From a virus (Duplodnaviria > Heunggongvirae > Uroviricota > Caudoviricetes): DNA of 53,117 nt. How positions within the stretch are numbered: the stretch's first letter is position 1; each line of letters begins with the position of its first letter. The stretch lies in the IMG/VR virus record IMGVR_UViG_2718218452_000009; one strand, 5' to 3'. This document shows positions 39,001 through 42,000 of this stretch, piece after piece. A program made the position numbers.

Positions 39001-42000
39001 CCTTCAGGGCGCATGGAATGACCGGGAAAATGCCCGTCTGGGGCTGGCAGCGGCCACGCTGCAGTCGGATATGGAAAAAGCCGGTGAACTGGCCGCCAGG
39101 GACCGGGCCGAACGGGACGCATCACAGCTGAAGTATACCGGAGAGGCGCAGAAGGCGTATGAGCGTCTGCTGACGCCGCTGGAGAAATATACCGCCCGTC
39201 AGGAAGAACTGAATAAGGCCCTGAAAGACGGGAAAATCCTGCAGGCGGATTACAACACGCTGATGGCGGCGGCGAAAAAGGATTATGAAGCGACGCTGAA
39301 AAAGCCGAAACAGTCCGGCGTGAAGGTGTCTGCGGGCGATCGTCAGGAAGACAGTGCTCATGCTGCCCTGCTGACGCTTCAGGCAGAACTCCGGACGCTG
39401 GAGAAGCATGCCGGAGCAAATGAGAAAATCAGCCAGCAGCGCCGGGATTTGTGGAAGGCGGAGAGTCAGTTCGCGGTACTGGAGGAGGCGGCGCAACGTC
39501 GCCAGCTGTCTGCACAGGAGAAATCCCTGCTGGCGCATAAAGATGAGACGCTGGAGTACAAACGCCAGCTGGCTGCACTTGGCGACAAGGTTACGTATCA
39601 GGAGCGCCTGAACGCGCTGGCGCAGCAGGCGGATAAATTCGCACAGCAGCAACGGGCAAAACGGGCCGCCATTGATGCGAAAAGCCGGGGGCTGACTGAC
39701 CGGCAGGCAGAACGGGAAGCCACGGAACAGCGCCTGAAGGAACAGTATGGCGATAATCCGCTGGCGCTGAATAACGTCATGTCAGAGCAGAAAAAGACCT
39801 GGGCGGCTGAAGACCAGCTTCGCGGGAACTGGATGGCAGGCCTGAAGTCCGGCTGGAGTGAGTGGGAAGAGAGCGCCACGGACAGTATGTCGCAGGTAAA
39901 AAGTGCAGCCACGCAGACCTTTGATGGTATTGCACAGAATATGGCGGCGATGCTGACCGGCAGTGAGCAGAACTGGCGCAGCTTCACCCGTTCCGTGCTG
40001 TCCATGATGACAGAAATTCTGCTTAAGCAGGCAATGGTGGGGATTGTCGGGAGTATCGGCAGCGCCATTGGCGGGGCTGTTGGTGGCGGCGCATCCGCGT
40101 CAGGCGGTACAGCCATTCAGGCCGCTGCGGCGAAATTCCATTTTGCAACCGGAGGATTTACGGGAACCGGCGGCAAATATGAGCCAGCGGGGATTGTTCA
40201 CCGTGGTGAGTTTGTCTTCACGAAGGAGGCAACCAGCCGGATTGGCGTGGGGAATCTTTACCGGCTGATGCGCGGCTATGCCACCGGCGGTTATGTCGGT
40301 ACACCGGGCAGCATGGCGGACAGTCGGTCGCAGGCGTCCGGGACGTTTGAGCAGAATAACCATGTGGTGATTAACAACGACGGCACGAACGGTCAGATAG
40401 GGCCACAGGCGCTGAAGGCTGTTTATGACGTAGCCCGTAAGGCGGCAATGGATGTTGTGACCGGGCAGATGCGTGATGGTGGTCTGTTCTCCGGAGGTGG
40501 ACGATGAAAACCTTCCGCTGGAAAGTGAAACCCGGTATGGATGTGGCTTCGGCCCCTTCTGTAAGAAAGGTGCGCTTTGGTGATGGCTGTTCAGCGAGCG
40601 CCTGCCGGGCTGAATGCCAACCTGAAAACGTACAGCGTGACGCTTTCTGTCCCCCGTGAGGAGGCCACGGTACTGGAGTCGTTTCTGGAAGAGCACGGGG
40701 GCTGGAAAGCCTTTCTGTGGACGCCGCCTTATGAGTGGCGGCAGATAAAGGTGACCTGCGCAAAATGGTCGTCGCGGGTCAGTATGCTGCGTGTTGAGTT
40801 CAGCGCAGAGTTTGAACAGGTGGTGAACTGATGCAGGATATCCGGCAGGAAACACTGAATGAATGCACCCGTGCGGAGCAGTCGGCCAGCGTGGTGCTCT
40901 GGGAAATCGACCTGACAGAGGTCGGTGGAGAACGTTATTTTTTCTGTAATGAGCAGAACGAAAAAGGTGAGCCGGTCACCTGGCAGGGGCGACAGTATCA
41001 GCCGTATCCCATTCAGGGGAGTGGTTTTGAACTGAATGGCAAAGGCACCAGTACGCGCCCCACGCTGACGGTTTCTAACCTGTACGGTATGGTCACCGGG
41101 ATGGCGGAAGATATGCAGAGTCTGGTCGGCGGAACGGTGGTCCGGCGTAAGGTTTACGCCCGTTTTCTGGATGCGGTGAACTTCGTCAACGGAAACAGTG
41201 ACGCCGATCCGGAGCAGGAGGTGATCAGCCGCTGGCGCATTGAGCAGTGCAGCGAACTGAGCGCGGTGAGTGCCTCTTTTGTACTGTCCACGCCGACGGA
41301 AACGGACGGCGCTGTTTTTCCGGGACGTATCATGCTGGCCAACACCTGCACCTGGACCTATCGCGGCGATGAGTGCGGTTATCACGGTCCGGCTGTCGCG
41401 GATGAATATGACCAGCCAACGTCCGATATCACGAAGGATAAATGCAGCAAATGCCTGAGCGGTTGTAAGTTCCGCAATAACGTCGGCAACTTTGGCGGCT
41501 TCCTTTCCATTAACAAACTTTCGTAGTAATGGATTATGCCCACCGTCAGGTGGGTTTTTTGTTTAGCAGTTCTCTCAACTTTTCGTTCTGCTCTCTGAAC
41601 TTTTCCTGTATTTCTTTTTGCATGGCGATCACTTGGGCTTGAAGTTGAACTAGCGCATCAACATTTAGCGGAACCGAGACGCTGTTGATTTTGTCTGCTA
41701 TTTCCCCAAGAGTATTTTCTGCATTCAAGGCATCTTCCAGTATCTGAACAATCTCTGAGTTCATAGAGCGCCCGTTTCGTTTGGCTCGTTCAGCTATAGC
41801 ATCTCGCATTCCGTCAGGAAAACGGAGGTTGAACTTGTCGTAGTCTTTTACTTGTTTTTCGGCCATTGCAAATCTCTCAAAAAAATCATGGTGCCATATT
41901 GCCATACGATTTCAATGGTGGCATTATGGCCTTCATGGCGTCACTTTGGCACCAAATAAAGGAGATTAGATAATGCAAGATACACTTTTCACTGAGCGCA

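Follow-up and report, generated by a model that had tools for sequence, protein, structure and literature searches.

The stretch of DNA analysed here (53,117 nucleotides, referred to as the window) is one lambdoid prophage of Escherichia coli. Related prophages sit between torS and torT, and the window prophage is integrated between the same two genes. The first part contains, in order, the integrase gene, exo-bet-gam, cI, cro, cII, O, P, ren, and the nin region. The late part is composed of Q, the lysis genes, the terminase and head genes, and the tail genes Z, U, V, G, T, H, M, and L. After L come an Arc/Arc/Ant module, K, I, J, lom, the tail fibre genes, and an NleG-type effector gene. The NleG-type effector lies inside the window; in relatives it is followed by EspJ. 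Features outside the tail region that are referred to below are as follows.

1..1074, minus strand: integrase gene
12573..13275, plus strand: P, replication gene, frameshifted by an extra G at 13096 (176 aa instead of 233 aa); predicted second lethal lesion
13565..14855: first IS3-family insertion (IS629/IS1203-like by cluster names), after ren and before the next gene, common to C7
approximately 15783..17087: second IS3-family insertion (IS629/IS1203-like by cluster names), splitting ninB, common to C7

The window is 99.9% identical to the prophage of E. coli strain C7, with which it shares both IS3-family insertions. It is 99.6–99.9% identical to the prophage of OkiPb01675, in which M is intact (WP_000847321.1). 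The orthologous prophage of C7 is broken up by inter-prophage rearrangements (loci L006, L008, and L003). The breakpoints correspond to window positions 39222, inside H, and 40828, at the M/L boundary. They flank M, so the 3’ half of H together with M behaves as a recombination-active repeat. Five M-like places are present in strain C7.

The Arc/Arc/Ant (antirepressor) module occupies 41546..43140 between L and K. It is kept in A1, OkiPb01675, and C7 and is not present in lambda or phage 434. An island of low GC content (about 34%) separates ninE from the HNH/ninG genes and contains a 590-aa ORF (18080..19852, minus strand). Relatives have this ORF annotated as hypothetical only; it may be a moron or a defence gene. 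An intergenic TATTTC hexamer repeat at 20168 differs in copy number among the window, OkiPb01675, and 13E0767. Close to the end of G, at 37483–37489, lies the canonical G-T −1 slip heptamer GGGAAAG, and the signal for the tail chaperone frameshift thus seems to be intact.

The decay lesions common to the C7 lineage are the two IS3-family insertions and an A7 to A6 frameshift at 23578. The latter lies in a hypothetical gene (ORF 23085..23603) that is annotated as "frameshifted" in C7 and is intact in OkiPb01675 and 13E0767. At 13831, between GCCAGTA repeats, the first IS copy lacks 19 bp of its interior, which results in a 233-aa OrfB. At least four protein accessions of this OrfB occur in one 5.35-Mb genome, which marks the deletion as a multi-copy IS variant and no private mutation.

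Private here denotes a difference that sets the window apart from each of C7, OkiPb01675, 13E0767, and A1. The P lesion is private to the window. It consists of the extra G at 13096, by which ACGCCG becomes ACGGCCG, and this G is not present in any E. coli relative among the matches listed. A lesion in P had been mentioned in the first-pass annotation of this DNA, and it does exist. Exact protein look-ups of the truncated P and of the window H protein each returned zero matches.

The M locus

The features of the M locus are listed below.

37928..40507, plus strand: H, tape measure gene, 859 aa, intact (ORF list; length equal to the annotated H of A1 and OkiPb01675; zero indels relative to relatives)
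40504..40659, plus strand: 5’ fragment of M, 51 aa (ORF list and alignment; Pfam PF05939 positions 1–28, 25.3 bits)
40577..40831, plus strand: 3’ fragment of M, 84 aa from TTG (ORF list and alignment; PF05939 positions 30–108, 90.9 bits for an 82-aa piece)
40591..40593, plus strand: deletion junction in M, TCA where relatives have TCC CA (alignments; pairwise indel lists against A1 and OkiPb01675)
40831..41526, plus strand: L, minor tail gene, 231 aa, intact (PF05100, 337.8 bits; length equal to the annotated L of A1 and OkiPb01675)

The M start codon (ATG, 40504–40506) overlaps the stop codon of H (40505–40507) within "gacgATGAaa", as the first-pass annotation had described. At the other end, the L start overlaps the native M stop in TGATG at 40829–40833. 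The order H-M-L with overlapping stop and start codons is the same in lambda, phage 434, A1, and OkiPb01675.

The frame that opens at 40504 contains 30 native codons (M1–S30) and 21 out-of-frame codons and ends at a TGA at 40657–40659. Native codons Q31–N109 are read in the +1 frame from 40592 to 40828, with the stop at 40829–40831. An early loss of frame had been recognized in the first-pass annotation, which placed it after about 28 codons; the loss stands and the length does not. The stop it put near 40656 exists, one position further on. Its assignment of the rest of M to a second ORF at 40577..40831 agrees with the ORF list. The two ORFs overlap by 83 nucleotides, and TTG at 40577, GTG at 40580, and ATG at 40583 are possible chance internal starts of the 3’ fragment. 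An uninterrupted ORF of about 109 codons, as expected of a gpM gene, is thus not found in the window; its sequence is divided between 40504..40659 and 40577..40831.

When the region is aligned with lambda (J02459), phage 434 (OL657226), and the C7 prophage, M shows a single 2-base gap, and the pairwise indel lists against E. coli A1 and OkiPb01675 show the same two bases missing from the window. The 2-bp deletion reported at first pass is therefore borne out by five intact relatives. The lesion changes TTCCCAG to TTCAG, with two C residues gone at 40591–40593 (a CCC run reduced to one C). The codons read GGC TGT TCA GCG A in the window, GGC TGT TCC CAG CGA GCG in phage 434, C7, A1, and OkiPb01675, and GGC TAT TCT CAG CGA GCG in lambda. 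The codons TCA CAG given for lambda at first pass differ by one base from J02459, which has TCT CAG. Outside the gap, M is base-for-base the M of phage 434. Cys29 is a polymorphism common to the window and phage 434 and is separate from the lesion.

When the two bases are restored, the translation matches PF05939 (Phage_min_tail) over profile positions 1–108 with 129 bits, against a cut-off of 39 bits. Compared with PDB 8IYK chain M, the tail tip protein M of lambda, it agrees in 106 of 109 residues (E = 3e-70). The 5’ fragment alone scores under the cut-off. Since the profile match is divided at positions 28/30, the pattern is one of true homology split by a frameshift and not of chance ORFs. 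The first 28 positions of the profile are conserved to the same degree as the remainder. A single-sequence AlphaFold2 prediction for the intact allele reached a pLDDT of 42.9, too low for placing the lost strands. Judged by its reading frames, the window M is a pseudogene of the gpM family and is predicted to be non-functional as a member.

Distribution of the deleted allele and accuracy of the window

The deleted M allele has zero exact matches in 5,426 complete E. coli genomes. With a 701-bp query, the best identity among complete E. coli genomes is 99.7%, and the matches listed all span 703 bp. A 70-bp query across the junction matches 2,931 E. coli records, all at 97.2% identity or less and none identical to the window. 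The best 6 of these 2,931 each span 72 bases, the two extra bases being present. Exact scans of genome, metagenome, and viral contig collections for the deleted 41-mer gave zero matches; the corresponding intact 43-mer was found in 13 viral contigs. Exact look-up of M products of 51, 82, 83, and 84 aa among approximately 15 billion proteins likewise gave zero matches. The intact 109-aa allele is present on at least 1,000 contigs, and its protein cluster has 3,088 members, the full-length ones being 109 aa. The deleted allele thus appears private to this sequence, while the intact allele appears common.

Other frameshifts in M are found elsewhere. Logan contigs ERR4561507_3210 and SRR10918449_2081 (L027, 141–469, and L028, 703–1031) contain an A4 to A3 change near codon 42. 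The 75-kb record CP088562.1, labelled a "plasmid" (L029, approximately 344–546), has CCC reduced to CC in the same C run as the window, and about 100 bases downstream of that run it departs from the window and phage 434 once more. These genes resemble the window M in being split by small homopolymer indels. Their lesions differ from that of the window, which makes them independent events or errors and separate alleles. Their occurrence in other assemblies suggests that inactivation of M by small indels recurs.

The window has nine private SNPs, of which eight are synonymous and mostly lie in clusters. Private indels initially numbered four. The clustered synonymous SNPs are best read as recombination patches of biological origin. 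An extra A at 6522, close to the 3’ end of gam, belongs with three synonymous SNPs in bet to a single haplotype (window 6006–6522), which also occurs in a different lambdoid prophage in CP010238.1 (L025). The extra A gives a 92-aa Gam, compared with 98 aa in close relatives. Because the haplotype is found in the CP010238.1 prophage, this stretch is taken as a gene-conversion patch with a natural 92-aa Gam allele. The small indels that are left as truly private are two, the extra G at 13096 in P and the loss of CC in M.

Four private synonymous third-position changes lie within 19 bp of H (38992–39010), a cluster that probably arose by gene conversion of a short tract from another H allele. Among the private SNPs only one is non-synonymous; it lies at 45579 (J codon 211), where the window encodes Gly and OkiPb01675 and A1 encode Cys. 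The exact J protein of the window occurs in one other assembly only, GCA_025635285.1.

The alternative with the most in its favour is an error of assembly or consensus. The true genome would then read TTCCCAG and encode an intact M of 109 codons, the two bases having been lost in a long-read consensus at the C run. The allele is unique to this sequence, and the lesion lies in a short homopolymer that covers a site polymorphic between prophage alleles (TCC or TCT). The 3’ half of H, M, and the 5’ end of L are a repeat among the C7 prophages, and consensus errors are likelier in such places. The 1-bp loss in the same run of CP088562.1, with its additional discrepancy about 100 bases away, fits an error of this kind as well. 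The source is probably a GenBank genome outside the RefSeq set that was searched. However, homopolymer errors typically add or remove one base, and here two are missing from a run of three. The remainder of the window also argues for accuracy. An error-ridden source assembly, which four private indels would suggest, was rejected once the gam insertion and the IS deletion were explained biologically, the first as a natural allele and the second as an IS variant. These explanations leave zero other unexplained indels across 53 kb and weaken the artefact reading without removing it. A contig of GCA_025635285.1, a draft assembly deposited independently, has 100% identity with window positions 41023–48460 (7.4 kb); this contig begins inside L, at window position 41023, and stops short of M. 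Over 29 kb compared with OkiPb01675, the indel in M is the only one inside a gene, and the sibling C7 has zero private indels over about 46 kb. On this evidence, a sequence error is considered unlikely.

Consequences of the lesion and comparison with known systems

The preferred reading, in which confidence is good, is that a real 2-bp deletion (CCC to C) at codons 30–31, recent and private to the lineage, made M a pseudogene. The 2-bp gap is the sole difference between the window M and the M of phage 434, C7, A1, and OkiPb01675, which supports a real deletion. Translation from the normal start would yield a 51-residue peptide of 30 native and 21 aberrant residues. A restart at 40577–40583 would yield a protein without the conserved first 30 or so residues.

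In lambda, gpM is the distal tail protein and assembles into a ring of six subunits, each with all 109 residues ordered; the fold consists of a beta-sandwich, an E-loop, and one helix (PMC10721106). The ring connects the gpV tube with the gpJ/gpL tip of the virion (PMC10721106; PMC7291167). Neither piece of the window M has the complete beta-sandwich, so the distal ring should fail to form and tails should stay uncompleted. With its tail initiators unfinished, the prophage alone would yield at most tail-less heads. The P frameshift would in addition block replication after induction.

A functional M is the other alternative. It would require a +1 ribosomal shift near 40588–40593, assembly of the protein from two pieces, or activity of the C-terminal 82–84-aa protein alone. 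The two ORFs do overlap (by 83 nucleotides, as given above), and SD-like motifs (AAAGG/GGTGAT, found by inspection) lie upstream of the TTG, GTG, and ATG at 40577–40583. Translation of the +1 ORF would also keep the termination-reinitiation coupling to L. The SD-like motifs are present in every intact M as well, which identifies them as coding sequence and not as evolved signals. The frame change is conserved in zero homologues. Inspection of 40577–40600 revealed zero +1 re-pairing codons, stops, rare codons, or homopolymer runs at GGC TGT TCA GCG, and a long A/T run suited to transcriptional slippage was not found at the M junction. Programmed ribosomal frameshifting and transcriptional slippage in M were rejected as candidates on these two grounds, the unconserved frame change and the slip signals not found. 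A functional M is further opposed by the structure of the virion, in which every gpM residue is structured (PMC10721106), and by the equal conservation of the N-terminal profile positions. A still functional M is accordingly regarded as very improbable. The same low standing is given to the wider proposal that M is +1-recoded at a low level near TGT-T-CAG or is a naturally split distal tail protein, its 30-residue N-terminal segment joining non-covalently with a C-terminal protein started internally. It is given as well to a milder form, in which the two private knock-outs, of P and M, would have been favoured for fixing an effector-carrying prophage in the chromosome.

Under the preferred reading of a real deletion, the element has frameshifts in two genes needed for lytic growth. 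Both gpM and P are essential in lambda, so the element should form no infectious particles by itself. A defective prophage is expected to have an inactivated gene among those that lytic growth requires, and here both M and P carry a lesion. The element would thus be a defective, decaying prophage that retains its NleG cargo. Its mobilization would require that other lambdoid prophages in the same cell complement it or recombine with it. Such help is known from poly-lysogenic E. coli, where the proteins of co-resident prophages serve to package and transfer defective lambdoid ones (PMC2669165). For this reason, and because C7 has five M-like places, the first-pass conclusion that the element cannot make infectious particles is limited to autonomous growth. 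It agrees with the M and P lesions to that extent and does not extend to hosts in which helper prophages complement the element, as such prophages could.

Prophage predictors based on gene content would score this prophage as complete; the frameshifts in P and M argue for a call of "defective". The practical value of the result lies in the correct annotation of M as a pseudogene. The NleG-type effector cargo would transfer only with the help of other prophages. This prophage also shows that patches of gene conversion among co-resident lambdoid elements may be mistaken for private mutations.

The M genes of lambda and phage 434 are the same gene as that of the window, in the same place between H and L and with the same overlapping codons, and the DNA of phage 434 is identical save for the gap. 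Unlike both, the window M loses its frame after codon 30 and does not encode the 109-aa product.

The laboratory strain of lambda offers a second comparison, since a frameshift in stf caused the loss of its side tail fibres (PMC10721106). In both cases a small frameshift affects a tail gene while the lambda-type genome is otherwise intact. They differ in that stf is dispensable and lambda is viable, whereas M is an essential component of the tail tip.

Close parallels are also the defective lambdoid prophages of EHEC and EPEC, as in the Sakai Sp pool (Asadulghani et al. 2009, PMC2669165). The window resembles them in its T3SS effector cargo, in its insertions of the IS629/IS1203 type, in its point lesions in replication and morphogenesis genes, and in the presence of several similar prophages per lineage. 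It differs from them in keeping nearly all of its structural genes and in having two private frameshifts, in P and M, that are plausibly lethal. The window prophage is, to judge from these features, at an early stage of decay. Tail genes broken by frameshifts are well known from decaying lambdoid prophages, and the allele described here is itself new only in a trivial sense.
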